Shown here piece by piece: positions 2,740 through 34,421 of a stretch of 49,203 nucleotides of DNA; position 1 is the stretch's first letter, and each line of letters starts with the position of its first letter. A program made the position numbers and the translations under genes. The notes beneath the pieces are model-generated. The model did not search any database, was not told the origin of the DNA, and saw nothing but the letters and a program-made list of their open reading frames with translations. Origin of the DNA: a virus; IMG/VR virus record IMGVR_UViG_3300025875_000043; one strand, 5' to 3'.

Positions 2740-2740
2740 A

Positions 2741-3172
2741 ATGGCTAGCCAACCGCCAGTAGATCAAGCCGGCTTTGCTGAACTTATCCAAAGGTTCGGT
2801 GCATATTTGGACGCGCAAAACGCCGCCCGCAATGTCGTGCCCGTCGCTGAACGCAACGGGCCAGGGCCATGGAATTTTACCGACGATAACGAAGGCGGGA
2901 AACGCTTGCGAGTTGGCAACGGCAACAATGCGGCAACCATTATCGTCAACCTATCAAAAAGCGCCGACGTTGGTACAGTCTTTATGCCAAGGCAAGTTGG
3001 CTTGGGAGCGGTTAAATTCGTGCCTGAAAACGGCGCTTCACTTGTGCCGTTTCAACCCGGCCACAATGGTACAGGCGGCGTAAACGCCGTTGTGTTGCTG
3101 ACGTGTGAAAGCAACCCTGACGGCAATAGTGCTGTTTGGCATCTTGACGGCGTAACGGGGGCTGTAGCGTGA
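2741..3172 (+). CDS. Hypothetical tail-associated protein (143 aa)
   Basis: ATG lies 2 nt after the J-like stop, and the 3' end overlaps the next gene's GTG (GTGA). No motif recognised. Confidence 0.55.
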   Translation: MASQPPVDQAGFAELIQRFGAYLDAQNAARNVVPVAERNGPGPWNFTDDNEGGKRLRVGNGNNAATIIVNLSKSADVGTVFMPRQVGLGAVKFVPENGASLVPFQPGHNGTGGVNAVVLLTCESNPDGNSAVWHLDGVTGAVA

Positions 3173-5445
3173 CTAGCTATTTTGGCGCTTACAATGTGGG
3201 CATGATCCCGCTTTTGCTTTCGGCTCTTTGGATTGCGCCTATAGCGTCAGGTAAAGCCGATGGTTCAAGCGTGAATGATGCCGCCCCTTTGTCGGCGTTG
3301 AACAACCTGATAACTAAAGCCGCTGACACTAAACAAGAAGTTTGGATTAGGGGTGATCTTGGCGTTTATAACCAAACATCATCTATAAGCATTAACAAAG
3401 GCGGTGTTGTCGTTAGAGGCGTTGATGGTTATGGCCGCGATTGCTTTGCCGAATTTGTTGGCAGTCGCGCCGATCCTTGGAAAGCCGGGGCCGCTAATGG
3501 CAACGAAATGTTTCGACTTAATAACGGTGCCAATAACCTTACACTAAGGTTTCTAAGGTTTCGCAATGTCGGAGCGGGTTGCATCCGTATGCGCGAACCT
3601 TTGATGAACGTGACTGTTGAAGATATTGAAGCTTTCAATGTTTCGCGCGGCGTTGTCAACTATGGCAACGGAACCGCTGACGCAACGGTAATCGGTGCTG
3701 TTGTCAGGCGCGTTAAAATTGTCAATTTTTCTAAGCATGGAATTGCTTTCAGGCACAATTCTAGTGGCATTCTAGTTGAAGATTGTGACTTAGACAGCCA
3801 AGACGTTGACGGCGACCGCATTACGGTTGGCTTTCAACTTGACGACAACGCTTCTAACGGCATTGCTAGACGTGTATCAGTAAAGAACGTTTATAACGCC
3901 GGCCCTGGCAGTTATTATAACGGCGACGGTCTTTCTGGCGAATGGGGCAACAAAAATTGGACCTTTGAAGATTGCAGCGCCGAAAACATTTCTGACGGCG
4001 GTGTTGACTTCAAAGGCGATGGTTTCAAGCTTATACGCTTCAAGGCTAAAAGCTGTAAACGTTCAGTTCGGCTTTGGGGTGATGCGCTAGTTGTCGATTT
4101 GTATAGCGAAGGCCCGAAAACTAGAGGCGACCGCAACAGCACTTGTCATGTATTCGCAATGCAAGGCGGCAGGGCGCGGGTTCGTATTCAAGGCGGCACT
4201 TATATTCAAAGTTCAACCAACCCTATCTTCAGGGTTGATGACAATTCGGTAATCGCATGGGACGCCGCCGCTGTTGCCGGCATTAAAGCCGCCGCCGGCT
4301 ATACCTTGTGTCAATCCGAATCTTCCGACTTGACCGATAGCCTTTCTAGCGAATGGAACCATAACGACACAACATTGCCCACAATTACCAGCCCGCTTGC
4401 ATTGTCGCTTGACGAAAACAAGCCTGGCACGTTCAGAATAACTTTATCTGAAATCGGCAACATTCAAATGCAAGGTTTGGATGCCAGCCAATGCCGGGTC
4501 ATCGGTCGAAACCTTACCGTGTTTTCCCAAGACTATGAAAAACCGGGCGGCGTTTCAAAGGACGGAAGCAACGTTCTAAAAATTCAATTGCGAGTGATTG
4601 ACCTTAACGACAATCTTTCGCCTTGGTATAACGCAACAATAACAATCAATGACGTTGCCGACGACCCCATTACCCCGGCACAGGCCATAGCGGCTAGTGG
4701 AGCAACAAATGGGTGGTGGTTCGACCTGACCGACCCCAACAGCATGTGGGCAGATGCGGCACGAACCATACCGGCGATTGAAAACGGCTTGGTCAAATCG
4801 CTTGCTGACTTGACCGGCTTTGGCAATCACTGTGTATTTCCTGACGGCTTTGAACCTTTGCTTAGGTATGTCAACGGTTATGCCGGCTTGGAATTTAGCG
4901 GGGCTGTAGTCGGCAACCTTGGGGCTAAAGGTGCGTTGCGCTATCCGCAATTTACAACCGTCGTCGCCATCAACAGGGATAGAGCGGCTGACGCTGGCAA
5001 CTTCGCCATTGTGTTTGCTGGCCGGCGTTCGTTGACTGTTGGCACTGGCGATAACGCAATGTATCGGCTGAACTTTTTGGATACGGGGACCGCTACTTTC
5101 AAGGTCAATCCGAACGGGGGTAACACGTCATCAACGACGCCGGCCACGGCTCCTAGAGGCGTGCCGCTTGTTGTTTCTCACAGGTCAGTTGATGGCATCT
5201 TGCGAAGCGGTTATGACGTTAATGGCATGGTGCAACGTTTCGACGGCAGCAACACCGCAACCGCAACATATCCGTTGGCGAATGAACAACCGTTGCTTGG
5301 CGCTATGCTGAACGATGCTAACGAATACGTGAACTTTTTTGAAGGCACGTTTTATGCGACCATGCAATTGAATGCCACGTTAAGCGACGACGTGCGTTTT
5401 CGCATTGAGCGTCAGCTAGGCAAAGCCGCCGGCCTGGCGCTATAA
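3169..5445 (+). CDS. Right-handed beta-helix protein (tail fibre/tailspike or polysaccharide depolymerase) with a C-terminal LamG/ConA-like domain
   Basis: Repeated beta-helix coil signatures (NNGANNLTLRFLRFRNVGAGCIRM, VRRVKIVNFSKHGIAF, VEDCDLDS, FEDCSAENISDGGVDF). Last gene of the late operon. The N-terminus is hydrophobic and signal-peptide-like (MIPLLLSALWIAPIASGKADG). Confidence 0.6.
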   Translation: MTSYFGAYNVGMIPLLLSALWIAPIASGKADGSSVNDAAPLSALNNLITKAADTKQEVWIRGDLGVYNQTSSISINKGGVVVRGVDGYGRDCFAEFVGSRADPWKAGAANGNEMFRLNNGANNLTLRFLRFRNVGAGCIRMREPLMNVTVEDIEAFNVSRGVVNYGNGTADATVIGAVVRRVKIVNFSKHGIAFRHNSSGILVEDCDLDSQDVDGDRITVGFQLDDNASNGIARRVSVKNVYNAGPGSYYNGDGLSGEWGNKNWTFEDCSAENISDGGVDFKGDGFKLIRFKAKSCKRSVRLWGDALVVDLYSEGPKTRGDRNSTCHVFAMQGGRARVRIQGGTYIQSSTNPIFRVDDNSVIAWDAAAVAGIKAAAGYTLCQSESSDLTDSLSSEWNHNDTTLPTITSPLALSLDENKPGTFRITLSEIGNIQMQGLDASQCRVIGRNLTVFSQDYEKPGGVSKDGSNVLKIQLRVIDLNDNLSPWYNATITINDVADDPITPAQAIAASGATNGWWFDLTDPNSMWADAARTIPAIENGLVKSLADLTGFGNHCVFPDGFEPLLRYVNGYAGLEFSGAVVGNLGAKGALRYPQFTTVVAINRDRAADAGNFAIVFAGRRSLTVGTGDNAMYRLNFLDTGTATFKVNPNGGNTSSTTPATAPRGVPLVVSHRSVDGILRSGYDVNGMVQRFDGSNTATATYPLANEQPLLGAMLNDANEYVNFFEGTFYATMQLNATLSDDVRFRIERQLGKAAGLAL

Positions 5446-5987: not shown

Positions 5988-8060
5988 TCAAATTAGGCGG
6001 TTGGCTTCAGGGCGCTTATAAACGCCAATGTCATAAAGAATGTCGATAGCTTCGCTGACATAGCGGTCAAAGTCAAGGTCATGCGGGATGGCAGGGGGAA
6101 GCGTCATAAGCGGGCGGGCACCTTCGGTCTTTGCCACCTTGTTGCCTGATGCCGCATAGTTGATTGTTCCGGTTTCGCCTTGCGCGTAATACCAACGCAC
6201 AGCCTTGCCGAGATAAACGCCGTCCTTTTCAGCGCCGCCCTTGACGTGTTTGACCGCCACAAACTTCTTCAGATCGCAGCAAGCCATGATGGTTTCGTGA
6301 ACCGGCGTGCCAACCGCTAGGTATTCTTGCACGGCTTCGGAACACACATAAGCTTCAGGGTTTTTGCTAAGCACGCTATTTTGTGCCGAACCACGTTCGC
6401 AATAGACCCCCTTGGTTTTGACTTCCGGCCGATTGCTACCTTCCTTCAGTTCCTTAATAGCAATATAGTTGTTCACGTCGCGGCTATACAGTGCCGAATA
6501 GCGGGTTTCTTCGGTGACAAAGCCGGTGCGCCCTTCCCAAATCGTCATAACGTTTTCAAGGTCAGCCGCCTTGTTCTTGGGGCACTTATACACCGCGCCG
6601 TCAGTGTTGGCGCTAATGCACGGTATGCCGGCCAACTCCACCATTTCGATTTGCATAAGAAGCGCAAGCTGGCCGGTAATCGTCACCTGTGCCAGCAAGT
6701 CAGGCGAATAAATATCGGAATAGAAGTTGCCAAGCTTTCCGAACGTGCCGTTAATCGCAATCTTCAATCCGGCTTCAAGCGGGTTCTTGGCCTTCTTCAG
6801 CGCTAGGCGACGCATGACAAGATTGCGGTAAACTTCAAGGAACGCCGGCCCCAAGTGTTCGGGGAACAGTTCATTGTTCAACACGATATAAGGGTAATAG
6901 CTGGCAACGTCGCGGTCTATGATAAGCGTATTGTCATCGGCGCGGTGGAACACGCTTTCTTCGTTGCTGTGTAAGCCGCCCATTGCAACGGTGTAGGTTT
7001 GACCGTTCAGGTTGACCAAGATGACGTGCGACCTGACGCCATCCTTTTCCTTGGTGCGGACCTTCAGCAACGGAAAGTCTTTTGCAAGGTCAGCCATATT
7101 GTGGGGAAACTTAGGCTTACCGCCTTTGCTAATTTCAATTGGAATTATCGCGACAAACTCTAGCAATTGCTGAAGCTGTGGCGTCTTAAATGAAAGCCAA
7201 TCGAACACGCGATAATTGAAGGTTTCGCCAACTTCCCAACTTCGGCGTTTGCCAATGGGGCCAAGCTTTTCAAGTTCGCTGACAATGACCGCTTCGGCAA
7301 TCTGTGCGTCAGACTTTGACCGCAAATCTTGGTTGTATTCGCGGCCAAGGTCTTCGCGCATGGTGATGAAGGGTTGAAGATGATTGAACAAACCAATGGT
7401 CAAGTCATCATCATTGATATTATAGTCACGAACGTTAGCCGCCTGTTCAGGCGTTAGTTCAGTTGCAATGTCATAAGGCAAGTCTTGCATTCGTTCGCAA
7501 TGCAAGCGCCCGCCGTAAATCTTTAGGGACGCTGAAATTGGCGCTACTGGCAACAAGTCAATGTGATTGACGTGCAATGCCTTCACGCCATATTTGCGTT
7601 CGACCTGATAGGGTTGCATTTCTTCTTTAATAATTTCATCGCTGACTTCCTTTAGCCGGGGCGCACGAACACCCTGGCAAGCGACAAGCGTTATCGGCAA
7701 GTCATAGGTGCGGCTATTGAAGCCAATAATAAGCCAACGGTAAAGGATATAAGTTAGGTAATTCTGCCAAACGTCGAATGGCGCGGCCATGCCGTTGACA
7801 AAGTAACCTTCAGGTGTGTCTTCAAAATAAACGATTTTGCCAGTGTCAATGCACTTGAAAGACACAAGCCAATAATTAGAATAACTTTCAACGTCGAACA
7901 CGGCCCTTTTGGAGCCGTGCAAGACTTCATCAGGGCCAAAAAGTTCATAAGACTTAGCCGGCGGAATAGGCGTGCTAAGGAAGTCACGCGAACGCAAAGC
8001 CGGGTCAAGCTTCTTGTCCGCGCGCTTACGCCTATCCGGCCGGCTATCGTCAAAGAACAT
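5988..8060 (-). CDS. Family-B DNA polymerase with 3'-5' exonuclease domain
   Basis: Exo motifs VFDVESYSNY, GFNSRTYDLP and DYNINDDDL. Pol motif A DRDVASYYPYI (DxxSLYPS-like), motif B KIAINGTFGKLG (KxxxNSxYG-like) and motif C ISANTDGAVY (DTDS-like). Confidence 0.85.
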   Translation of the reverse strand: MFFDDSRPDRRKRADKKLDPALRSRDFLSTPIPPAKSYELFGPDEVLHGSKRAVFDVESYSNYWLVSFKCIDTGKIVYFEDTPEGYFVNGMAAPFDVWQNYLTYILYRWLIIGFNSRTYDLPITLVACQGVRAPRLKEVSDEIIKEEMQPYQVERKYGVKALHVNHIDLLPVAPISASLKIYGGRLHCERMQDLPYDIATELTPEQAANVRDYNINDDDLTIGLFNHLQPFITMREDLGREYNQDLRSKSDAQIAEAVIVSELEKLGPIGKRRSWEVGETFNYRVFDWLSFKTPQLQQLLEFVAIIPIEISKGGKPKFPHNMADLAKDFPLLKVRTKEKDGVRSHVILVNLNGQTYTVAMGGLHSNEESVFHRADDNTLIIDRDVASYYPYIVLNNELFPEHLGPAFLEVYRNLVMRRLALKKAKNPLEAGLKIAINGTFGKLGNFYSDIYSPDLLAQVTITGQLALLMQIEMVELAGIPCISANTDGAVYKCPKNKAADLENVMTIWEGRTGFVTEETRYSALYSRDVNNYIAIKELKEGSNRPEVKTKGVYCERGSAQNSVLSKNPEAYVCSEAVQEYLAVGTPVHETIMACCDLKKFVAVKHVKGGAEKDGVYLGKAVRWYYAQGETGTINYAASGNKVAKTEGARPLMTLPPAIPHDLDFDRYVSEAIDILYDIGVYKRPEANRLI

Positions 8061-8063
8061 AGT

Positions 8064-9452
8064 TTAGCCCTGACCCCAACCTTGGCTTTGGTCTTCATCT
8101 TCAGGTGGTGGCACGTCATCGTCAATGCCATCAGAACTGTGGATTTGCGCCCCGCCAATGGTGTCGCTTGTTTCATCAAAACCTTCACGATAAGTGACGG
8201 TTGTGGCCAAGCCGACGATTGCCCCGCGCACAGTGCCAGGCACCGGCCCGTTCGGGCCAATGGCTTCCCCGCCGAAGAAATAGGCGCGGTCACCATACGT
8301 CGTCAGGTCAATGGTCTTGGCATAAGGCGACACGTCCTTAATCAGCTTGCCCTTGAACCGCTTGCCGCCTTGAAGCCCTTGCACTTCATAGATAGCACCA
8401 GCGCCTTGGTCAGTGTGCGACATAACCATGTTGTCGCCAAATGTTATCCAATCGTCATCGGTGAACTTGCTGACCGCCTCCACCGCGTCGAACAAGCCGG
8501 TAAGCGTTTCGGCGGGATGGCTGTTGACATTCAGCACCGCGCCAACGTCGGGCCAACGATCCTGATAGCACTGTGTCTTGATCCAAGCGCCGCCTTCAAA
8601 GTGGAAGGTGACGCTGGCAACGGTGCCGTCGCCGCCCCAACTGAAGCCGAAGCCGACGAACGGCTTTGTGACCTTGGCCACAGCCGCCGTGAACGTCTTA
8701 GGCAGCACCATTGCCGGGGGAAGGTCAACGCCGTGGAAGTATTGCAGAACCGCCGCCCCATTCGTGCCGGTGCAAACATAAGCTTCAAGCAACAATGACG
8801 CATAATGCGCCTTATCTGCCGCTTCGCTCGCCAGCACGCCGCACACCTTGAACGCTTCCTTGATTTGTTCGGTGACGGGTGCAATGTTCAGGTCAGGCTT
8901 GGGCATGTGCAATTCTTCAGGATGCAAGCACGGCACCAAGGCACGCAACTTATCACCTTTGACCGAAAGCTGACCGTTGGGGGTTTCGCTGATAACCAAC
9001 GACTTGCCGCAACGCTTCAAAGCCGCTTCAAGCTTGTCAAGGCGGGGCGCAAGGGTCAGTTCTTCGGCAATGGGATGACCCGCCGACACCTGGCCGTTGA
9101 AAGTAATTGCTTCCTTCCCGATAAGACGAACCACGGCCTTCCAAGTTTCCGCGTCGTCATCAAACGTGCCCACACTGACGAAGGCCAGTGCGTCAAGAAG
9201 GTTCTGTGCCTGTGTCGGCTTTGCCGGCCGGCCGCGTCGTGTTCCTGCCATGTTAGCTTTCCTTTCGATTGTTGGCCAATAGACTTCTATTGTCCATTCT
9301 AGCAACCGCGACCGTCCTGGCCTTGGGTTTGTGCGGTCTAACTCGCCAAGGCGTTGCCGTTCTTTATCGTGCGCCACCCGTTCGGCTATCCTGTCCTTGG
9401 CGTTAGGGAAGCTTTCAAGATAAGCCCGGTATATGTCATGTTCGCGCCCCAT
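8064..9452 (-). CDS. Possible phage sliding clamp (DnaN-like fold) with an N-terminal extension and an AT-hook. An alternative internal start exists at 9251.
   Basis: The domain-like repeat pattern resembles beta-clamps (LLEAYVCTGTNGAAVLQY vs ATDGHRLA; QDRWPDVGAVLN vs fPDYxxVIP). It contains RRGRPAKP. A strong SD (GAAAGGAAAGCTAAC-ATG) precedes the internal Met at 9251, while ATG 9452 abuts the upstream stop (TAAATG). Confidence 0.45.
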   Translation of the reverse strand: MGREHDIYRAYLESFPNAKDRIAERVAHDKERQRLGELDRTNPRPGRSRLLEWTIEVYWPTIERKANMAGTRRGRPAKPTQAQNLLDALAFVSVGTFDDDAETWKAVVRLIGKEAITFNGQVSAGHPIAEELTLAPRLDKLEAALKRCGKSLVISETPNGQLSVKGDKLRALVPCLHPEELHMPKPDLNIAPVTEQIKEAFKVCGVLASEAADKAHYASLLLEAYVCTGTNGAAVLQYFHGVDLPPAMVLPKTFTAAVAKVTKPFVGFGFSWGGDGTVASVTFHFEGGAWIKTQCYQDRWPDVGAVLNVNSHPAETLTGLFDAVEAVSKFTDDDWITFGDNMVMSHTDQGAGAIYEVQGLQGGKRFKGKLIKDVSPYAKTIDLTTYGDRAYFFGGEAIGPNGPVPGTVRGAIVGLATTVTYREGFDETSDTIGGAQIHSSDGIDDDVPPPEDEDQSQGWGQG

Positions 9453-9683
9453 TTAGAACGGTATTTCATCCGATGGCATATAGCTATCGCAACCGAATGC
9501 CACCACGCGCGGCGGCGGGTTGCCGTTGTGCATCATGCAATAAAGGTTTGGTTCCTTGAACGAAGCACAGTTGAAACAACAACGCTTGCTTCGTTCCACC
9601 GCCTTTGCAACAGCGTCGTGAATTGCCTTTACCAAAGCCGCCCGGTCTTTCACTTGGCTTTCGTTTACTGGGTCAGAACTCAT
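9453..9683 (-). CDS. Small Cys-rich (Zn-ribbon-like) protein ending in an SSB-type C-terminal tip (SDEIPF)
   Basis: 76 aa with CCFNC...C...C and C-terminus ...YMPSDEIPF-stop. Overlaps the helicase 3' end by 11 nt and abuts the next start. Confidence 0.65.
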   Translation of the reverse strand: MSSDPVNESQVKDRAALVKAIHDAVAKAVERSKRCCFNCASFKEPNLYCMMHNGNPPPRVVAFGCDSYMPSDEIPF

Positions 9684-11460
9684 ATCCCATTATCTCCGGT
9701 GTTTGCTTGTTGACCCAAACGTTGATGCGCCGGGGTGCCCTTAGTTCGCCAATCAATTCAAGCACCTTTGCGTTAGTTGTCGGCACGTCTTCATCCCAAC
9801 CGGGTTCCCAACTGTGCCGGCCGTCGCTATAGTGGAACCTTTGCCGGAACCAATCGCGCGACTTCTTACGAAAGAACGTCACCGGGCTTTCAACCGATAT
9901 GTATTCGTAAAAGGTCTTCAACCCGCAAAAGTAAGCAACCCGAATGCTTGCCCGCCCGCTGGCCTTGCTAGTGTGGGCAGTTAGAACCATATGTTTGACT
10001 TCATAAGGTTCAATCTGTGGAAGGTCCGACCGCAACAGTTCAAGGTTCGACGCATTGCGGTTAAGCTTTTCGGCAAAGGTAAATTCAGTGCCGCACACAA
10101 TACATTCACGCGCCGACGCATGGTTATAGGTGTTGCATTGAACGCCGTTAATGATTGCTTCGCAAATCCTGACCGGCGCGTCACCTGGCGGGCCGGAACC
10201 CTTCGGCCGGGGGATAACCGGGTCATTGATAGGGCCAAGCCGGCGAGTGTTGCCAGCGAAGTCAAGCACCAAACAATTGTTTTTGATGAACGGGAAGTTG
10301 GTTGCCAGTTCGCGGTTGGTTTCAGTCAGATAATCATAAGGACGTGTGCCACGGCCAAGCATTTGAACCCAAAGCCCTGGCGACATAGTTGGCCGAAGCA
10401 TCGCAATTAGGTCAATCGGCTTGTGGTCAACGCCAGTGGTCAGCTTGTTCATGCTAACGGCGGCGCGGGCTTTGCCGGTCTTCCACGCCGTAAATGCTTC
10501 GTCGTTTTCGGCATCGGTTTTGTTGCTGTGCATACACACAGTTGGAATGCCAAAAATGCTGTTCAGCATTTCAGCAACGTGTTCGGCGTGTTCAACACCG
10601 CTGGCGAAGATTAGCCAACACGCGCGGTCTTGGCCTTCCTCCACCACTTGCTTCAGCGCGCCATAAGTGACGGTTTCTTTGTCAACCGCCGCCTGAAGTT
10701 CGCCGGCCTTAAACTCACCTTGCGACATACCGACGCCGGAAACGTCAAGCGTGACGTTGGTGCGACGTGGGATAAGCGGGCACAAAAAGCCATCGGCCAA
10801 AAGCCGGTTGAACCCGTCAATGTTGCACAAATCATAAACGACGTGCGTAAACAACGGCCCGTTCGTCATTGGCCCTAAGCCAAGACGGTAAGGCGTGGCG
10901 GTGAAACCAATGACCTTCAGCCAAGGATTGATATTAGGGCTGTTCGCATTGATGCCAGCCGGCCCTTTGGTCAATTCTTCAATAAACTTCACATAGCTTG
11001 TGTCGGCGTTAGGGCTAAGCAAATGCGCTTCGTCAATGCCGAGCAAGTCACGCTTGCCGAGCAACGGGAACTTGCCGACCATTGATTGCACGCCGCCAAA
11101 GATAAGCGGTTGCATGGTGTCGCGTTGCTTCAAGCCGGCGCTATAGACGCCAAGTGGTGCCAGCGGCCAAATTTCTAGCATTTTCGCCGCGTTTTGCCGT
11201 ATCAGTTCCTTAACGTGCGTCGCCATGATAGCGCGGGTGCCAGGATACATGATAAGCGCACGCCGGAAAAATTCAGCGATGACCACCGACTTGCCGGTGC
11301 CAGTAGGAAGACAGACAAGCGGGTTGGCGGGTTCTTGCGAGTGCGCGCGGGCCGGATCATTGAAGAAGTCGAACAGTGCTTGCACCGCTTCTTCTTGATA
11401 CCAACGAAGCTTAATCGGCTCTAATACCGGCCCGCCGTTATGTCCTATGCCAGCCGACAC
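9673..11460 (-). CDS. Superfamily-2 DEAH-box DNA helicase with a C-terminal zinc ribbon
   Basis: LPTGTGKS (motif I), GIDEAHLL (motif II), GFTATP (motif III), QMLGRGTR (motif VI) and CEAIINGVQCN...CIVCG. GTG start lies directly after the upstream TAA. The N-terminus carries GIGHNGGP. Confidence 0.85.
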   Translation of the reverse strand: MSAGIGHNGGPVLEPIKLRWYQEEAVQALFDFFNDPARAHSQEPANPLVCLPTGTGKSVVIAEFFRRALIMYPGTRAIMATHVKELIRQNAAKMLEIWPLAPLGVYSAGLKQRDTMQPLIFGGVQSMVGKFPLLGKRDLLGIDEAHLLSPNADTSYVKFIEELTKGPAGINANSPNINPWLKVIGFTATPYRLGLGPMTNGPLFTHVVYDLCNIDGFNRLLADGFLCPLIPRRTNVTLDVSGVGMSQGEFKAGELQAAVDKETVTYGALKQVVEEGQDRACWLIFASGVEHAEHVAEMLNSIFGIPTVCMHSNKTDAENDEAFTAWKTGKARAAVSMNKLTTGVDHKPIDLIAMLRPTMSPGLWVQMLGRGTRPYDYLTETNRELATNFPFIKNNCLVLDFAGNTRRLGPINDPVIPRPKGSGPPGDAPVRICEAIINGVQCNTYNHASARECIVCGTEFTFAEKLNRNASNLELLRSDLPQIEPYEVKHMVLTAHTSKASGRASIRVAYFCGLKTFYEYISVESPVTFFRKKSRDWFRQRFHYSDGRHSWEPGWDEDVPTTNAKVLELIGELRAPRRINVWVNKQTPEIMGYEF

Positions 11461-12408
11461 TTAGGCAATCCTTGCGTAACTGGCACACCCTTGCGGGATG
11501 ATATATTTAGGTATGTTGGCGTTATGCACCTGGCAAAACCATTCCGCGCCTTCGACGGGAAAAGCGTTGCGACAGCTTCGGCAATTCTTTGTGGGCACTT
11601 CCCCACGGTGACACAGGCCGGCAAAGTCGCAATACTTACAGTCAAAGAACGTGTCGGTTTGTGCTATCTTCGGCGGGCGCGTTTGGCTGAACACAATGCC
11701 TTCAGCCTTCCTAAAAAGGTCATCGGCTTGCCGGAAGTCTAGCTTAACAATTTCAAAATATAGTTCGTCGGTTTCTTTGTTGACCGCGCAATAAAGGCCA
11801 TAATTGAAGTTATAAGCGCGGCCATAGGAACACATTTGCCGATAATGTTGGGGCTTGCTCTTTTGCACGCCGTCGCCGCCAGTGCGCGGCGCGTCCATTT
11901 TATCCCATGACGGCTTTTTGCCGGCTAGCTTGGCAAACGACTTTTCGTTGTGCGTCTTGAACTCGCCAAGCCAAATGATATGTTCAGCCGGAATGCCATA
12001 ACGTTCCGGCGGCTTCATCATGGCGTCAAGTGACCCGCCGAAGTGCCCTTTAGCACCGACGATGCGAAATTGCTTCTTGGTTTCAGGGTCAAGTTCGCGC
12101 ACCTGAAAACCGATGCCTTCAAGCCAACGAACAAAGCGGGCTTCTTCAGCGTGCCCACGGTTGAACAGCCGCAACATTCGGCCGCTGAACGCTTCAAAGC
12201 GCAACCACCTAAACGTATTCCAGGCGTAAGCTTGGCAGTCATTGCCGATGATCGAAGCGCCAAGATGCGTGCGCGGGTCTTCGGCAAATTCTTCGCGGCA
12301 AAACTTGTCAATGTCGGCTTGGATTTGAAGCACTAGCCGCTTGCGGTCAATAGGGTCAGCCAAGTCTAGGGCCGGCCCGCCATTGTGACCAATGCCAGGT
12401 TGGTTCAT
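11461..12408 (-). CDS. PD-(D/E)XK exonuclease, Cas4/RecB-like, with an Fe-S cluster Cys set
   Basis: GSLDAMM...WLGEFKTHN (D...ExK). An N-terminal Cys (GNDCQAY) plus C-terminal CKYCDFAGLC (CX2CX5C) matches the Cas4/AddB pattern. There is an extra CRSC...CQVH...C. The N-terminus carries GIGHNGGP. Confidence 0.75.
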   Translation of the reverse strand: MNQPGIGHNGGPALDLADPIDRKRLVLQIQADIDKFCREEFAEDPRTHLGASIIGNDCQAYAWNTFRWLRFEAFSGRMLRLFNRGHAEEARFVRWLEGIGFQVRELDPETKKQFRIVGAKGHFGGSLDAMMKPPERYGIPAEHIIWLGEFKTHNEKSFAKLAGKKPSWDKMDAPRTGGDGVQKSKPQHYRQMCSYGRAYNFNYGLYCAVNKETDELYFEIVKLDFRQADDLFRKAEGIVFSQTRPPKIAQTDTFFDCKYCDFAGLCHRGEVPTKNCRSCRNAFPVEGAEWFCQVHNANIPKYIIPQGCASYARIA

Positions 12409-12497: not shown

Positions 12498-13436
12498 TTA
12501 GCGCGCCTGACCCCAACCGGCAGCACCGCCGCCCGCCTGGCCACCGCCCTGACCGCCCCAACCGCCGGCCGCGCCGCCCTGTTGACCGCCGCCCTGACCT
12601 TGGCCGGCCTGGCCACCCTGACCGCCCCAAGCGCCTTGCTGACCGCCTTGACCGCCGCCATTCTGACCCTGACCCGCGTTCGGATCGGTGCCGCCTTGCT
12701 GGCCACCCCAACCACCGGCTTGACCGCCCTGGCCACCACCGTTGCCGAAGCCGCCGCCTTGCTGACCGCCGCCTTGCTGTTCGCCGCCCTGACCGCCACC
12801 GCCAAAGCCGCCACCGCCCTGACCGCCACCGAAGCCGCCTTGCTGACCCTGGCCACCCTGACCCTGGCCACCGCCGTTGTCGCCGCCCCATGACCCGGTG
12901 CCCTGAACGCCGCCAGCGGGCGGGCCGTTCGGTGCGCCACCGCTGTTGCCAGCCTGACCCGCGTTGGCCTGTGGCCCCGCGCCGGCCTTGCCAGGGGGGT
13001 TGCCGTTCACGTCATAGATGGCCTTGACTTCGGTGTAACCCTTGGCGCGGGCTTCTTCACCCTTCTGCAAGCCGACTTCGACGACGAACGGGATGCCATG
13101 AAGTTCCTGTGTGTCGTTGAACTGGAACTTGCCGATAACGTGGCAATACGCCGAAAGCTGGCCGTTCGCAATACGCACCACTTCGGGGTTGGAGTGCATA
13201 AGGTTCAGACGATCAGTGTGCTTCACGTCCTTTTGCGGGCCTTCGACGCACGCCAGTTCAAGGCCAAGATAGCCGCCCTTGACGTTGCCGAAGCTGTCCT
13301 TGGTATCAGTCGGTGCGCTGTTGACGATAACGACCTTATACTTGACGTTTTCGCCATTCGGGCCGGCCGGAAGACCGCCACCGCCAGCACCATAAGACGG
13401 CGTGTGCTGTTGTGCGTTGAACGAATAGGCAACCAT
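12498..13436 (-). CDS. DUF669-type phage ssDNA-binding-like protein with a C-terminal Gly/Gln-rich tail of about 170 aa. The alternative start at 13604 would add 56 aa.
   Basis: MVAYSFNAQQ...YKVVIVNS...RLNLMHSNPEVVRIANGQLSAYCHVIG matches my memory of the DUF669 core. SD GAAGGATTAAGCGAA precedes ATG 13436. It lies next to a Sak4-like ATPase, the usual pairing. Confidence 0.7.
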   Translation of the reverse strand: MVAYSFNAQQHTPSYGAGGGGLPAGPNGENVKYKVVIVNSAPTDTKDSFGNVKGGYLGLELACVEGPQKDVKHTDRLNLMHSNPEVVRIANGQLSAYCHVIGKFQFNDTQELHGIPFVVEVGLQKGEEARAKGYTEVKAIYDVNGNPPGKAGAGPQANAGQAGNSGGAPNGPPAGGVQGTGSWGGDNGGGQGQGGQGQQGGFGGGQGGGGFGGGGQGGEQQGGGQQGGGFGNGGGQGGQAGGWGGQQGGTDPNAGQGQNGGGQGGQQGAWGGQGGQAGQGQGGGQQGGAAGGWGGQGGGQAGGGAAGWGQAR

Positions 13437-15049: not shown

Positions 15050-15727
15050 TTAATCCTTCTTCGGTTCTTCAAAGGTCAGTTGCGGCGACGCCGGCTTTAG
15101 CGTCAGAATTTCAGCGATGGCGTCGCGCACGGCCTTTTCAGCCGGGATTGCTTCGTCAAGCTTTTCATATTCCGACAAGCTAAGTTCGGGCTTCCACTTG
15201 ATAACCCGCTTCAGCACTTGTTCGCCAACCGGGCCGAAACCTTCAAAGGCTTCAACGTCAGGCGTTGCCGGCGCACCGTCAATAATGCGGTCTTCAAGCG
15301 CCCGCACTTGTGCTTCAATGGCAATCGCCTTGCCTTCGGCGTCAACGGCTTCCTTGTTGCCAAGGGTCGCGGTCATGCCATGAACAAGCTTGACCTTATA
15401 GCCGCCGCCAATGTCATAGCGTTGCGTGCCCTTCTTGGGCGCGGGGAACAGCGTTGCCGTCACCTTCGCGCGCAAGTCGGCTTCGTTCGTCTTGGCGTTT
15501 TCCAAGACCGGCTTGGCCGCAAGCCAATGTTCAATTTCGGCATTGCGCCGAAGCCGGAAGTGTTCGGGGTCTTCCGTATCCGGCTGGCCGGCATACTTGA
15601 CTTCATACTTGACGACAGGTGCCGCCACTTCGACGGCGGCGGGGGTGCCCCAACCGTCGCCTGTGCCGCTGTTGTGACCAATGCCACCTTCAACGACGGG
15701 GGGAGTGCCCCAACCTTCACCGTTCAT
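15050..15727 (-). CDS. Hypothetical protein (225 aa), first gene of the leftward replication/recombination operon
   Basis: ATG 15727 is preceded by AAAGGAATTACCCAC. The N-terminus is MNGEGWGTPPVVEGGIGHNSGTGDGWGTP. The upstream 38 codons in the ORF track look non-coding. Confidence 0.55.
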   Translation of the reverse strand: MNGEGWGTPPVVEGGIGHNSGTGDGWGTPAAVEVAAPVVKYEVKYAGQPDTEDPEHFRLRRNAEIEHWLAAKPVLENAKTNEADLRAKVTATLFPAPKKGTQRYDIGGGYKVKLVHGMTATLGNKEAVDAEGKAIAIEAQVRALEDRIIDGAPATPDVEAFEGFGPVGEQVLKRVIKWKPELSLSEYEKLDEAIPAEKAVRDAIAEILTLKPASPQLTFEEPKKD

Positions 15728-23232: not shown

Positions 23233-23510
23233 ACGCCGATGAAGATTGCGCTGTGTGCGGGCATGACACACCGTGCCAATGTGGTACGCGGGTTGCCAAG
23301 GTGCCGGTGCTTAACACCGCAACACTAGGGCCGGTGCTTAACACCGCAACACTAGGGCCGGTCAGGTTCGACCCTGACCGCGACGCCGAACGTGCGCGCC
23401 TTGTGCGCGAAGCCATGCGGGCTTGCGATAGTTCGCTTTTGGCCATAGCGTCCAACTATTGCAGCGACGCCACCTTGGCCAAGCTTGGAAGGATGCTGAA
23501 ACATGGCTGA
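23229..23510 (+). CDS. Hypothetical Cys-rich protein containing a duplicated PVLNTATLG nonapeptide
   Basis: GTG 23229 overlaps the upstream TGA (the start is uncertain, as TTG/GTG alternatives exist from 23190). Contains CAVCGHDTPCQC. Confidence 0.45.
   Translation: MNADEDCAVCGHDTPCQCGTRVAKVPVLNTATLGPVLNTATLGPVRFDPDRDAERARLVREAMRACDSSLLAIASNYCSDATLAKLGRMLKHG
23304..23357 (+). repeat. Perfect 27-bp tandem duplication (2 copies plus 5 bp of a third)
   Basis: ccggtgcttaacaccgcaacactaggg x2, in frame. Confidence 0.95.
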
Positions 23511-24018
23511 AACGCCGCCAATCACATATTTTCTTCAAGGGCACGCCGCCGCTGAAGCCGGCCAGCCGGAAAGCGCCAATCCCTTGTTGTTCGACGCCTG
23601 GCCGTTTCAGGCTTGGCTTGCCGGCCATCGGTTCTATGCCGAGTATGCCAGCGCGCGGGTTCTTCAGCATGACAGCCCGCTTGAACGGGTTGACGTGACG
23701 CCGCACGAACAAGGCCGGGTCGCACACGGCAAGGGCCGGCCTTTGGAGGCTTGCCCTTACGAACCGCAAAGCCATGATTGGCGCATGTGGCGCTGTGGTT
23801 GGGTTGAACGCCTGAACGAATTGACCACCGAAGACAGCGGCGAACAACACGCCAACTGTGGTGCCAGGCGCTTGGCTGTCATCATTTACGCGATTATTTC
23901 AGTCATCATTTATGCCGCCATTGTGTGGGCATTTGTAGCTTTACCATCGGCCCGTAACACCGGATATAAAGCCTGTGTTAGCAAAGCCGGTAACACTTGG
24001 GTAACTTGTAAGCGTTAA
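23503..24018 (+). CDS. Membrane-anchored protein with two Rmf/CrpP-like repeats
   Basis: GRVAHGKGRPLEACPYEPQSHDWRMWRCGWVE fits the Rmf/CrpP-type motif (G..A..G....CPY....W..GW). A weaker first copy is QGHAAAEAGQPESANP...WLAGH. C-terminal TM helix LAVIIYAIISVIIYAAIVWAFVAL. Confidence 0.45.
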   Translation: MAETPPITYFLQGHAAAEAGQPESANPLLFDAWPFQAWLAGHRFYAEYASARVLQHDSPLERVDVTPHEQGRVAHGKGRPLEACPYEPQSHDWRMWRCGWVERLNELTTEDSGEQHANCGARRLAVIIYAIISVIIYAAIVWAFVALPSARNTGYKACVSKAGNTWVTCKR

Positions 24019-31163: not shown

Positions 31164-31601
31164 ATGTGGAACACCGCGCCTTTAATCTTTGAAGACGAAG
31201 ACGAAGAAAAGCTATTGGCTGACTTCGTGAAGTATTCCGCAATTCATAAAGACCGCGACCCCTTTGAAATTGCGGCTTATGTGTTCCGCAACCAACGTGA
31301 CCCTGAACTTCGCGCCCAACAAGCCGCCATGATTTGGGCGAAAGACATTGACGTTGCTGAACGCATCCGACTTGCGCGGCTTAACGGCGGTGCTGAAGGT
31401 TCGGTTATTCCAACCAAAGAACAGCGGATGCGCCAGCTTCAAGAAATGTTTGAAGACGTTACTTTGCCGGTCAAGGAACGTATCGCGGCGCAACGGCTGT
31501 TGTCTGAAATGGCTGGCGATATTGTAAAGGCCGTTGACAAGAACGTTACCACTGGCAAACGCCAGCCCCGCCAAGTCATCTACGCCAAATATGATGACTG
31601 A
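31164..31601 (+). CDS. Putative terminase small subunit
   Basis: 145 aa, directly upstream of and overlapping TerL. Called by position only. Confidence 0.45.
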   Translation: MWNTAPLIFEDEDEEKLLADFVKYSAIHKDRDPFEIAAYVFRNQRDPELRAQQAAMIWAKDIDVAERIRLARLNGGAEGSVIPTKEQRMRQLQEMFEDVTLPVKERIAAQRLLSEMAGDIVKAVDKNVTTGKRQPRQVIYAKYDD

Positions 31602-32904
31602 CCGTGGCATTGGTGACAACGGCGGGCCACCGCTTGAACCCCTAGTTGTCCGCTTCACTGACCCGCAATATGAACTGATAACGACCAAGGCGCGTTATCC
31701 GGCGATGGTTGCCGGCTTCGGCGCTGGCAAAACTGGCGCGTTGATTGCACGCGCCATAGCATTGAAGCTGGCATATCCTGATAACGACATTGCCTATTAT
31801 CTGCCAACTTATGACCTTGTGACAACTATTGCGTTTCCAAGGTTTGAAGAAGCCTTGGCGGAACAAGGTTTTGTCTTCGGTGAAGATTACACCACTGTTC
31901 GCAACCAAACGCCGAAGATTAAGATAATTAATTGCGGTGACATTATCTTTAGAACTATGGACCGGCCGCAACGTATTGTCGGCTATGAAGTCGCTGATAG
32001 CTTTGTTGACGAACTTGACACGCTGAAAACCGAAGACGCACGGGCGGTGTGGTCGAAGATTATTGCGCGTAACCGGCAAAAGAAGCACGACGGCAGCGAC
32101 AACACCATTGCTGTGGGCACTACACCTGAAGGTTTCCGCTTCGTCTATGATCGGTGGAAGAAAGCCCCGCCTAGTGACGAATATAAGATAATTCGTGCCA
32201 GCACTTACAGCAACCAACGCAACTTGCCGGCTAACTATATTTCTGACTTGTTAGCTGACTATCCCACACAGCTAATCGCCGCCTATCTTGACGGCGAATT
32301 TGTCAACTTGACGGCTGGCGCGGTTTACAACGAATTTGACCGTAAGTTGAATGGTTGCACGACTACGGTTCAACCTGGCGAAGCCTTGCACATTGGCATG
32401 GACTTCAACGTTGGTAAGATGGCGGCTGTTGTGTTTGTTGCCAGGAATGGCGACCCGCACGCTGTTGCCGAGTTGACCGGGTTGTTAGACACGCCGGCTA
32501 TGATTAAGGCGTTGAAAGCGCGCTTTCCTAATCATGTCATCTTTATTTATCCTGACGCCAGCGGGCAAAACCGCAAGTCGGAAAACGCCAGTTCGTCAGA
32601 CGTTGCTTTGCTTCAGCAAGCCGGGTTCAATGTTTTGGTCAATGCCAGTAACCCCGCTGTTAAAGACCGCATACTTTCAGTTAATCGCATGATCCATGCC
32701 GGTGGCAAGCGGCTGTTAAAAGTCAACGCCGACCTTTGCCCCGCATTCTGTGAGACATTAGAAAAACAAGCCTATGACAAGAACGGGGAGCCTGATAAGA
32801 CTTCTGGCCTTGACCACGCGGGCGATGCCGGCGGATATTTCATTTGTTACCGTTTCCCTGTCGTTATGGGCCGGGTCCAAAAGGTAAAGCTAGGCGGTGT
32901 GTAA
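31591..32904 (+). CDS. terL: Terminase large subunit
   Basis: Walker A GFGAGKTG and Walker B-like SFVDELD. Nuclease half with DFNVGKMAAVV...YPDASG. ATG 31591 lies within the TerS 3' end. The N-terminus carries GIGDNGGP. Confidence 0.85.
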   Translation: MMTDRGIGDNGGPPLEPLVVRFTDPQYELITTKARYPAMVAGFGAGKTGALIARAIALKLAYPDNDIAYYLPTYDLVTTIAFPRFEEALAEQGFVFGEDYTTVRNQTPKIKIINCGDIIFRTMDRPQRIVGYEVADSFVDELDTLKTEDARAVWSKIIARNRQKKHDGSDNTIAVGTTPEGFRFVYDRWKKAPPSDEYKIIRASTYSNQRNLPANYISDLLADYPTQLIAAYLDGEFVNLTAGAVYNEFDRKLNGCTTTVQPGEALHIGMDFNVGKMAAVVFVARNGDPHAVAELTGLLDTPAMIKALKARFPNHVIFIYPDASGQNRKSENASSSDVALLQQAGFNVLVNASNPAVKDRILSVNRMIHAGGKRLLKVNADLCPAFCETLEKQAYDKNGEPDKTSGLDHAGDAGGYFICYRFPVVMGRVQKVKLGGV

Positions 32905-34421
32905 TGGCTAAAGCAACTGGCGTTAAATCAAAGCACCGCGACTATGACGCTTATGCTAGGAAGTGGCGTAGGTGCCGCGACGTTGCGAGTGGCCAAGACG
33001 CCGTGCATGGCGGCGGCACGCTTTACCTTCCCCGGCTGAACGAACAGGAACTTGGCGACTATTTGGCGTATGTGGCGCGCACGCCGTTCTATAACGCGAC
33101 GTGGCGCACTATGGCCGGCTTTATCGGCATGTTGTTCAGGAAGCCGGCAACGCTTGAAGTGCCGAAGAAGCTTGAAGATTACTTGAACGACGTAACTATG
33201 TCGGGTGTGACCTTCAACGCTTTTGCCAAAGAGTGCGCGCTTGAAGACCTGACTGTTAGCCGGGTTGGTGTGCTTGTTGACCATCCGCGCCAGCAAACCG
33301 ACGCCGAAGGCAACCCGGTTCCCATTAGCATTGCGGTTGCTGAAAGCCTTGGCCTTCGCCCGTCAATGCAACTTTACCGTGCTGAAGCCATTATTGATTG
33401 GAAGAAAGACCGGGTTGGCAACAAGACGGTCTTGAAGCAAGTTCGGCTTCTTGAAGAACATGGCGTTGAAAAGAACGAATTTGAAACCGAAACCGAATTG
33501 CGGGTGCGGGTGCTTGACTTGTTCAACGGCCAATACCGCGTGCGGGTCTTCAACGAAGATACCGAAGAACAGATTGGCGGCGACGTTTACCCTGTAATGA
33601 ACGGCAAGCCTTTGGCTTATATCCCGTTCTATTTCATCGGCCCTGACGATGGCGAAGACGAACTAAGCGACCCCATCTTGATTGACTTGGTTGACTTGAA
33701 TATCAAGCACTATCAGGTCAGCGCCGACTATGAACATGGTTGCCATATGGCAGGTTTGCCCACACCCGTCATTGCCGGCTATCAGACTGAATTTGACCAA
33801 AACGGCAACGCGGTGCCGGCCAAGTTTTATATCGGTTCGGGCACGGCTTGGGTGTTTCCTAACTTTCAAACTACGGTCAAGTATCTTGAATTTACTGGCC
33901 AGGGTTTGACCGCGCTTGAAAACAACCTGAAGGCCAAGGAAGGTCAGCTTGCCGCCATTGGCGCGCGTATGCTTGCGCCTGAAAAGAGTGGCGTTGAAGC
34001 ATCCGAAACCCTGGCCATGCGGCATAGCGGTGAACATTCGGTGCTTGGCGCAATCGCTATTGCGGTCAGCGAAGGCTTGACCAAGGCGCTGAAGGTGTTT
34101 GCCGAATGGGCGGGCATTCCCGGCGAAGTCAAGTTTGAAATTAACCGCGACTTTGTGCCTATGTCGGTGGATAGCGGAACGCTGACCGCTTGGCTGTCGC
34201 TTGTTCAGGGCGGGCAAATGAGTGGCGAAAGCCTCTTTGATTTGCTGAAGCGCGCCGACCTTATCGCGCCTGAACTGAAGTATGAAGAAGAACAAGCGCG
34301 CATCGACGCCAACCCGCCCGCGCCCCCGATTGGTCATAACGGCGGGCCGGGTCTTGAAGAAAATGAAGAAGACGATGAAGACAAACCTGGCGCAAAGCCG
34401 CCGACGCCGGCCGCTGAATAA
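32904..34421 (+). CDS. Portal protein
   Basis: TAATG overlap with TerL; size 505 aa. YLPRLNEQELGDYLAYVARTPFYNATWRTMAGFIGMLFRKP resembles the DUF4055-type portal N-terminus. The acidic C-terminus carries IGHNGGP. Confidence 0.75.
   Translation: MAKATGVKSKHRDYDAYARKWRRCRDVASGQDAVHGGGTLYLPRLNEQELGDYLAYVARTPFYNATWRTMAGFIGMLFRKPATLEVPKKLEDYLNDVTMSGVTFNAFAKECALEDLTVSRVGVLVDHPRQQTDAEGNPVPISIAVAESLGLRPSMQLYRAEAIIDWKKDRVGNKTVLKQVRLLEEHGVEKNEFETETELRVRVLDLFNGQYRVRVFNEDTEEQIGGDVYPVMNGKPLAYIPFYFIGPDDGEDELSDPILIDLVDLNIKHYQVSADYEHGCHMAGLPTPVIAGYQTEFDQNGNAVPAKFYIGSGTAWVFPNFQTTVKYLEFTGQGLTALENNLKAKEGQLAAIGARMLAPEKSGVEASETLAMRHSGEHSVLGAIAIAVSEGLTKALKVFAEWAGIPGEVKFEINRDFVPMSVDSGTLTAWLSLVQGGQMSGESLFDLLKRADLIAPELKYEEEQARIDANPPAPPIGHNGGPGLEENEEDDEDKPGAKPPTPAAE

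Follow-up and report, generated by a model that had tools for sequence, protein, structure and literature searches.

A short Gly-His-Asn-Gly peptide on unrelated phage proteins, a candidate portable linear motif in viruses of Alphaproteobacteria

Why would five proteins of unrelated families carry the same short peptide in one phage genome? The question is raised by IMG/VR record IMGVR_UViG_3300025875_000043, a phage genome of 49.2 kb (49,203 nucleotides, 54.8% G+C), the whole of which is called the window below. The peptide, GIGHNGGP or a close variant, is found in a helicase, a nuclease, a protein with a DUF7173 domain, the large terminase (TerL) and the portal protein. On the comparisons of sequence described here, we consider it somewhat probable that it is a portable short linear motif (SLiM) that docks on a host factor of Alphaproteobacteria.

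The peptide in the window

The window was searched in six frames with a regular expression and was also read directly. The peptide was present five times, at all the sites that an earlier note on this DNA had listed, and the carriers belong to unrelated families (Table 1). The copies have more in common than the octapeptide, with the consensus IG[HD]NGGP-x-L-[DE]. The helicase is of the superfamily 2 (SF2) type (ResIII + Helicase_C) and its Pfam ResIII match begins at residue 16; the nuclease is a Cas4-domain exonuclease whose PHROG 1990 match begins at residue 24; the DUF7173 protein is the first protein of the replication operon, with a Pfam match beginning at residue 97 of the longer open reading frame (ORF). 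TerL is of the Terminase_6N + 6C type. The portal copy lies within a Pro-rich, acidic C-terminal tail, and the portal domain (DUF4055) ends ~100 residues upstream of it. In all five carriers the motif falls outside the family match, before its start or after its end.

Wrong annotation of the starts, which would have left the motif untranslated, was not borne out. The helicase GTG at 11460 directly abuts the nuclease stop codon, AAGGA lies 8 nt upstream, and there is no alternative start codon ahead of the conserved LRWYQEEA. The nuclease and TerL ATGs are supported by orthologues with the same start, and ATG 15727, the start of the DUF7173 protein, agrees with the starts of its orthologues. 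The most likely start of the portal is ATG 32904, which places the motif 23 residues from the C-terminus. Translation of all the window copies is secure. Chance frequency was exceeded: the degenerate DNA pattern GGNATHGGNSAYAAYRGYGG matches the window 4 times, and none of 100 dinucleotide-preserving shuffles of the window contains a match.

Carriers among viral proteins

IMG/VR contigs were scanned with the degenerate DNA pattern GGNATHGGNCAYAAYGGNGGNCC and at least 120 loci were obtained, against 5 matches for a permuted peptide of identical degenerate composition. Carrier and taxonomic counts, here and below, are among the matches listed, which are not phylogenetically independent. The viral loci fell into at least 29 unrelated ORF clusters, and TerL, portal and capsid proteins were the commonest carriers. 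TerL was counted in six families or positions. The motif lay in the linker between the ATPase and nuclease domains of Terminase_1-type TerL (38 loci), at the N-terminus of Terminase_3 and Terminase_6N TerL and at the C-terminus of one Terminase_6C protein; in RDJL Phi1, a cultured Roseobacter phage, the TerL copy is internal. At least four portal families were carriers, among them SU10-like and P22-type portals and those of the HK97 type, which have it in the C-terminal tail (23 loci). In one HK97-type portal (L231, Table 1) the motif was N-terminal, not C-terminal. Three capsid families were counted, and the motif lay in the N-terminal scaffold region of HK97-fold capsid proteins, at the N-terminus of PF09950 capsid proteins and in the inter-domain region of a fusion of prohead protease (S78) and capsid protein (L126, Table 1). 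The tally also includes Mu Gp27 (the Mu small terminase, TerS), SF2 helicases, Cas4-like and PHROG 10477 exonucleases and C5 cytosine methylases (motif in a loop); further carriers were GapR-like proteins, an HTH_17 protein, excisionase-like proteins and a tail-fibre-like protein. The motif has been added independently to many unrelated protein families and, as the orthologues below show, is evolutionarily labile, as SLiMs are.

The form GIGHNSG, which the earlier note had counted as a variant, was scanned separately. It gave 63 loci with the same kinds of carrier as the GGP form and at the same positions, and it is rightly treated as the same motif. Its carriers were phage GapR-like proteins (PF10073; N-terminus, at least 13 loci), SF2 helicases, PF09950 capsid proteins, Mu Gp27, lambda-type TerL (GpA) and the PHROG 10477 exonuclease family. 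Two members of the last family, L465 and L427, both have GIGHNSG, and gp036 of Rhizobium phage RHph_I3_18, which its sequence resemblance to L465 would place in the same exonuclease family, has IGDNGGP at the equivalent N-terminal position. Since one family has both forms, they appear to be interchangeable.

Two groups of carriers had recurrent arrangements. The GapR-like proteins (L417, Table 1, and at least 12 more loci among L417-L479) commonly start with M..GIGHNSG before a conserved helix of the form LRxFIERIERLEEEK. Members of a family of 280-525 residues without library match (L155 and L122, Table 1; also L127, L220 and L032) have the motif, a Pro-rich stretch and a C-terminal Y(D/N)xHHIV, a region that may be a nuclease-like signature.

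For cultured phages, blastn with a consensus 39-mer returned mostly GC-rich chance matches in actinophages. The only real matches were the TerL of RDJL Phi1/Phi2 and RHph_I3_18 gp036; those in Kikimora and CcrSC were not the motif. A 32-column profile of the motif gave only 6 HMMER matches at E <= 1e-3, being too short for statistical power, and a homologue search with a 45-residue synthetic triple-motif protein gave 152 candidates, none of them useful.

Gain and loss among orthologues

The motif was followed through the window family (related contigs of about 48-49 kb). In the window, L411, L405 and L413 it is present on the DUF7173 protein, the nuclease and the helicase; in L414 it is present on the nuclease and helicase and absent from the DUF7173 protein, and in L415 and L416 it is present on the DUF7173 protein and absent from the other two. 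The DUF7173 protein is not covered in L406, where the nuclease and helicase both lack the motif, or in L241, where the nuclease has it and the helicase does not. The nuclease and helicase copies co-vary in 8 of the 9 lineages, and several proteins have the motif together in some lineages and none have it in others. Conservation in orthologues was thus divided: the helicase of L411, L405, L413 and L414 kept the motif and that of L406, L415 and L416 was without it.

The L415 helicase has no N-terminal motif, but has GIGHNS (GPPGIGHNSRNVNP) in an internal loop (Table 1), at a place where the window helicase has GPAGINANSPNINP. The motif may have moved to this loop, or the internal GIGHNS may be fortuitous. 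The DUF7173 protein keeps IGHNSG or IGHNSQ in L411, L405, L413, L415 and L416. In the window this variant is flanked on both sides by short GWG/GW repeats (GEGWGTPPVVEGGIGHNSGTGDGWGTP; 15665-15727, minus strand), an arrangement kept in L405, L411, L413 and L415, including relatives without the motif on the nuclease and helicase.

Outside this set, the motif was found in only 2 of 80 TerL relatives (45-73% identity), the two closest (TIGHNGGPPL in L244 and GIGDNGGPPL in L245); the TerL of L246 (72% identity) and L247 (67%) were without it. It forms a prefix of ~12 residues ahead of the conserved [IL]ELTxPQF. The portals of L244-L247 have the same Pro-rich tail as the window portal without the motif, and in portal tails generally the motif is a presence/absence polymorphism. 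Nine of 120 nuclease homologues (59-87% identity) carry it, in two clades; two more have the decayed forms GMGHNQGPPL and PVGYNGSALL, and the rest begin M[IV]DLxDH. In the Terminase_1 linkers the exact GIGHNGGPP[LI] was found in about 55 of 80, with a decay series in others (GIGHDGGPPL, GIGKGGGPPL, GIGLGGGPPI, GGSGPPL); a helical insertion interrupts some linkers, and others are without the motif. The motif is easily lost.

Host range and a chromosomal carrier

A resemblance to proteins of alphaproteobacterial prophages had been suggested in the earlier note. In contigs of one genome per species, 67 of the first 80 titled matches were from Alphaproteobacteria (Rhizobiales, Rhodobacterales, Sphingomonadales, Rhodospirillales, Acetobacterales, plus Caulobacter), in agreement with that suggestion. 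Six others were labelled only Proteobacteria or "uncultured bacterium" and seven were from other groups. Some of the odd genome matches (a histidine kinase, a DnaJ-like sequence) look like chance, as expected in a collection of 596 Gb. Essentially, only Alphaproteobacteria and their viruses have the motif.

The closest cultured relative of the replication module is Variovorax phage VCLv21, which has a betaproteobacterial host. Its nuclease is 69% identical to that of the window, and its nuclease, helicase and DUF7173 protein are all without the motif, the alignments starting just after the motif positions. The motif-positive contigs of the family have 49.5-54.8% G+C and the motif-negative L406, L246 and L247 have 46.5-47.8%, which hints at different hosts.

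One small protein, 65-235 residues long, accounted for about half of the listed genome matches. Its sequence has [ILV]GHNGGPPL[DE] at the N-terminus and then W+xxxW++AHxxAWKTPPREIALRRLARAEELGxTYxEYTLEIxERGRYL, and the family comprises at least 1625 clusters at 90% identity, all named hypothetical (example loci in Table 1; proteins P0001-P0120). No match was found in Pfam, NCBIfam, PHROGs, PADLOC or PDB, and Foldseek with a model of the protein gave no match below E = 3. Rhodobacterales have a 190-residue form, whose gene is flanked by ribE on one side and by ribBA-ribH-nusB on the other, all on the same strand; the gene is therefore chromosomal and does not belong to a prophage. When the proteins to be aligned were picked by their similarity over the whole length, the motif was as conserved as the folded part, with N, G and P invariant and with at least 90% conservation of G, H, G, P and L. 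AlphaFold predicted three helices (residues 21-72; predicted local distance difference test, pLDDT, 70-94), with the motif region modelled as disordered and undocked (pLDDT about 50).

Sequence form, position and predicted disorder

Over all the carriers, the core is [ILVM]-G-[HD]-N-[GS]-G and the commonest full form is G-I-G-H-N-G-G-P-P-[LI]-[DE]-[DE]. With 7-11 residues it is within the length of SLiMs (3-11 residues, few fixed positions). The motif is outside folded cores and is displayed on flexible N-terminal tips, C-terminal tails, inserted surface loops and inter-domain linkers; the earlier statement that it is always terminal holds in the window and fails elsewhere, where linkers and loops also carry it. 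AlphaFold models gave pLDDT below 55 at the motif and predicted the region to be without structure. In the model of the window nuclease (mean pLDDT 89.6), residues 1-8 were below 50 and no secondary structure was predicted before residue 19. In alignment with the HK97 TerL (6z6d) the TerL copy falls in a gap, and in alignment with the HK97 portal (8cez) the portal copy prolongs the extreme C-terminal tail. Pro, Glu and Asp are over-represented in the flanks, and Val, Arg, Ile and Lys are under-represented. Domain matches, pLDDT, structure alignments and flanks all place the motif in a disordered or exposed segment outside the folded domains, as for SLiMs.

No PDB chain has the motif, and PDB sequence searches with the host small protein and the triple-motif peptide gave no match. 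None of the Pfam and NCBIfam models covers it. Full-text literature searches on motif strings and topics gave nothing relevant, a description in literature outside the searched library being possible; the peptide is apparently undescribed. The loop GxGxxG of Rossmann folds, which joins a hydrophobic beta-strand to a helix and binds dinucleotides, was rejected: G-I-G-H-N-G fits the pattern, but lies in predicted low-confidence coil with acidic, Pro-rich flanks.

Codon usage at the motif

The DNA of the copies had been described as partly conserved. The resemblance exists, the four window copies of the GGP form having identical codons at 25 of 39 positions, but is mostly codon bias, with 18.1 +/- 3.9 expected from genome codon usage (P about 0.06). 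In 111 distinct viral contexts, 4 of 8 codon positions (1, 3, 4 and 5) match background usage; with half of the synonymous positions at background, selection acts on the peptide. Within the window phage family, codons are common to orthologous copies (GGT CAC AAT in the nuclease copy and GGA CAT AAC in the helicase copy, each alike in the window and L405), and synonymous sites differ between paralogous copies. From this likeness of orthologues and difference of paralogues it follows that the copies are old and have been kept by selection on the peptide. Matches in viral contigs were in frame within long ORFs in 119 of 124 cases, and the Ser of the variant is encoded by unrelated codons (AGC in the window, TCT in L405). 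The motif is under purifying selection as a peptide.

Deviations from background were of several kinds. Across viral contexts, ATA was used 23 times at Ile (6.7 expected) and GGR 51 times at Gly7 (29 expected); GGG was avoided at Gly6 and CCC at Pro8. Gly7 is GGG in all four window copies (11431-11433, 12376-12378, 31624-31626 and 34344-34346), although GGG makes up 8% of the genome's Gly codons. Avoidance of G or C homopolymer runs accounts for part of these anomalies.

Proposed partner and alternative explanations

In the reading that we prefer, the motif would be a docking site for one conserved alphaproteobacterial cellular factor. Among the natural clients of that factor would be the host small protein, and phage proteins would engage the factor by copying the motif. 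A partner encoded by the host is favoured because the motif is restricted to one bacterial class, one carrier is chromosomal, the phage types with the motif are diverse and no phage gene is common to them. The carriers are DNA-handling enzymes together with packaging and head machinery, and their nature points loosely to two classes of partner, namely a DNA-associated hub with a peptide-binding pocket, by a logic like that of the beta clamp, or a chaperone or protease machine; read from the carrier list, each of the two is a doubtful candidate when taken singly.

Several observations weigh against docking on a host factor. Presence of the motif on TerL and on the portal of the same prophage is uncorrelated (cells 13, 39, 5 and 18; odds ratio about 1.2). 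Portal C-terminal tails and capsid N-terminal regions end inside the capsid, where a cytoplasmic partner could be met only before or during assembly. Sphingomonas phage Kharn has an alphaproteobacterial host but zero copies, so the motif is facultative. The carrier and taxonomic counts suffer from their lack of phylogenetic independence. Finally, four codon positions within the motif depart from background, which leaves room for an effect at the level of mRNA or translation.

Such an effect might be that of a nascent-chain or mRNA element that slows ribosomes and so tunes initiation, coupling or co-translational folding at protein termini and domain boundaries. Gly-Gly-Pro-Pro is dependent on elongation factor P (EF-P), and the commonest form contains GGPP; the codon deviation lies inside the motif, with the rare codon GGG at Gly7 in the window; and gene starts, inter-domain linkers and gene ends are sites where pauses are useful. 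Arrest peptides of the SecM and ApdP type, however, need a longer nascent chain in the tunnel, and many copies are 3-10 residues from the initiator Met, too short for tunnel-mediated arrest. Pro-Pro is missing in three of the four GGP copies of the window and GIGHNSG has no Pro, the invariant residues being the upstream G-H-N-G. The pattern of a ribosome arrest peptide, a stall-site Pro with at least about 15 residues upstream, was not found. The codon anomalies come in large part from homopolymer avoidance and their contexts are not independent. A role in translation is therefore judged unlikely.

An intrinsic chemical or structural role, as a Gly/Pro hinge, as a site of Asn-Gly deamidation or Asn cyclisation (a timer or self-cleavage) or as a His/Asn metal site, seems improbable to us as well. 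The Asn is invariant and is always followed by Gly or Ser, and Asn-Gly and Asn-Ser are the two most deamidation-prone contexts; His often stands just before the Asn, as at intein C-termini; and in TerL the motif is at the hinge of the ATPase and nuclease domains. For a hinge, on the other hand, a suitable composition would do and the octapeptide need not be identical across at least 29 families, cleavage of the TerL linker would part the ATPase from the nuclease, and none of these roles accounts for the restriction to one bacterial class. Intein-type Asn cyclisation or self-cleavage was rejected: inteins have a Cys, Ser or Thr nucleophile after the Asn, where the motif has Gly (or Ser-Gly), and a Hint domain was not found.

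Host mimicry in an arms race would be another way to use a host peptide. Phage proteins would copy the N-terminal peptide of the small protein to engage, titrate or blind a surveillance or hub protein of the host. The commonest carriers (TerL, portal, capsid, nucleases, methylases) are targets of known bacterial immune sensors, such as Avs (TerL and portal), CapRel and Lit (both capsid). The motif is also gained and lost rapidly and is specific to a host clade, as is typical of counter-defence traits. We regard it as an outside chance.

Docking on a partner encoded by the phage itself, be it the clamp-like protein or another such as the small terminase or a scaffold, is quite improbable. The earlier note had proposed docking on a common hub, with the clamp-like protein of the phage as an example; the peptide does, on indirect evidence, behave as a short linear motif, for which a host hub is favoured, and the phage clamp did not hold up. 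The window has a clamp-like DNA polymerase processivity factor (PHROG 947, Table 1) adjoining the motif-bearing helicase and nuclease, the copies on these two proteins co-vary as described above, and several T4 proteins have a common tail that binds the gp45 clamp. Presence of the motif nevertheless does not track the phage clamp. In L406 the clamp-like protein is retained at 55% identity, but neither the nuclease nor the helicase, which is 73% identical and begins MINLNEPITLRWYQ, has the motif; Kharn has a beta-clamp homologue and no motif in its 43 kb. Carriers are mostly TerL and portals of HK97-type prophages. They span phages with HK97-like, P22-like, Mu-like, lambda-gpA-like and T4-type terminases, without an obvious common protein. 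The motif also heads one host-chromosomal protein of housekeeping context without PHROG match. A search for a peptide-binding hub domain among the window's other genes found nothing suggestive. Identity with the clamp-binding motif itself was rejected, since the peptide has no Gln or aromatic anchor, unlike Q-L-[SD]-L-F or Q-x-x-[LM]-x-F.

That the conserved unit is DNA, be it a linker for recombination where modules join, a site bound by a protein or a regulatory RNA element merely read through, is largely refuted by the codon analysis and has almost no chance of being right, even though the copies lie at gene boundaries, where mosaic joints occur, and those of the window have more codons in common than expected.

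Comparison with known systems

Very few SLiMs are known to us in bacteria and phages, the main examples being the clamp-binding motif and the tail of the single-stranded DNA-binding protein (SSB). In its behaviour the GIGHNGGP peptide most resembles client motifs of the clamp/PCNA type and the mimicry of host motifs by eukaryotic viruses. The beta-clamp motif (QL[SD]LF type) and the gp45-binding tails of T4 gp43, gp33 and gp55 are likewise short peptides on flexible termini of different DNA enzymes with one hub, they are readily gained and lost, and clamp and PCNA client lists resemble the helicase, nuclease, methylase and terminase carriers; the differences are that they do not resemble it in sequence, that clamps do not count portal and capsid proteins among their clients, and that phage clamps do not follow the motif. 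In eukaryotic viruses (LxCxE, PIP-box, PDZ-binding tails), the same peptide is found in a host protein and, independently, in many viral proteins, in disordered regions, with quick turnover and host-clade specificity. The difference is the bacterial and phage setting, where few such motifs are known.

Two further systems resemble the motif in part. The capsid-targeting sequences of T4 internal proteins and P1 Dar proteins are N-terminal peptides common to unrelated cargo, and portal tails and capsid N-termini face the procapsid interior. The motif, in contrast, is also on terminases and on a chromosomal host protein, many of its copies are internal or C-terminal, and its carriers come from phage types with head proteins of different sequence families. 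A capsid-targeting signal of the T4 type, which is an N-terminal peptide that the prohead protease removes from proteins packaged in the head, fits in part and was set aside: it suits the portal tails and capsid N-terminal regions but not the terminases, the internal copies or the chromosomal small protein. Ribosome arrest peptides (SecM, ...GIRAGP; ApdP, RAPP) are short and end in Gly/Pro, and the ribosome as a shared partner would explain portability; the motif differs in that its Pro is dispensable, its copies are often within 10 residues of the start and its conserved part is G-H-N-G.

One peptide thus marks many unrelated phage protein families across a bacterial class, together with an uncharacterised conserved host protein. 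If it is a docking tag, it would give a handle on a factor of the host on which phages of Rhizobiales, Rhodobacterales, Sphingomonadales and related orders draw when they package DNA, assemble heads and replicate, and the 12-residue peptide (PGIGHNGGPPLDD, PGIGHNGGPPLDDE) could be used as bait. The motif may also serve as a marker of an alphaproteobacterial host for uncultured phages, of which the window is probably a case, and it offers a lead on the large host small-protein family, which is without annotation.

Feature coordinates and further genes

Table 1. Coordinates of the motif copies in the window and of other features named in the text
Feature	Gene	Strand	Motif or match	Motif location
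Window, helicase copy	9673..11460 (GTG start)	minus	VSA-GIGHNGGP-VLEP	11451..11428; residues 4-11
Window, nuclease copy	11461..12408	minus	MNQP-GIGHNGGP-ALDL	12396..12373; residues 5-12
Window, DUF7173-protein copy	15050..15727	minus	GIGHNSG (GG-IGHNSG)	15685..15665; residues 15-21 from ATG 15727
Window, TerL copy	31591..32904	plus	MMTDR-GIGDNGGP-PLEP	31606..31629; residues 6-13
Window, portal copy	32904..34421	plus	PP-IGHNGGP-GLEE	34329..34349; 23 residues before stop
Window, clamp-like DNA polymerase processivity factor	8064..9452	minus	PHROG 947	
Window, 171-residue ORF	23503-24018	plus	RMF (borderline)	
L415 helicase	6919-8640		GIGHNS	nt 7390; internal loop
L126 prohead protease (S78)-capsid fusion	1551-3821	minus		inter-domain region
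L231 HK97-type portal	6477-7958	minus		N-terminal
L417 GapR-like protein	950-1243	minus	GIGHNSG; PF10073	N-terminal
L155, recurrent 280-525-residue family	2386-3252	minus		
L122, recurrent 280-525-residue family	3717-4856	minus		
L204 small protein	6279-6509	minus		
L128 small protein	417-626	plus		
L177 small protein	2551-3120	plus		
L405 HNH_3 endonuclease	12747-13256	plus		
L415 N6_N4 methyltransferase	1178-1942	minus		

Three further genes were recorded besides the carriers. The 171-residue ORF of the window has a borderline Pfam match to ribosome modulation factor (RMF), at 27.6 bits with a cut-off of 27.9. Two relatives of the window phage have additional genes: in L405 an HNH_3 endonuclease gene lies just after the helicase, and in L415 an N6_N4 methyltransferase gene adjoins the primase.

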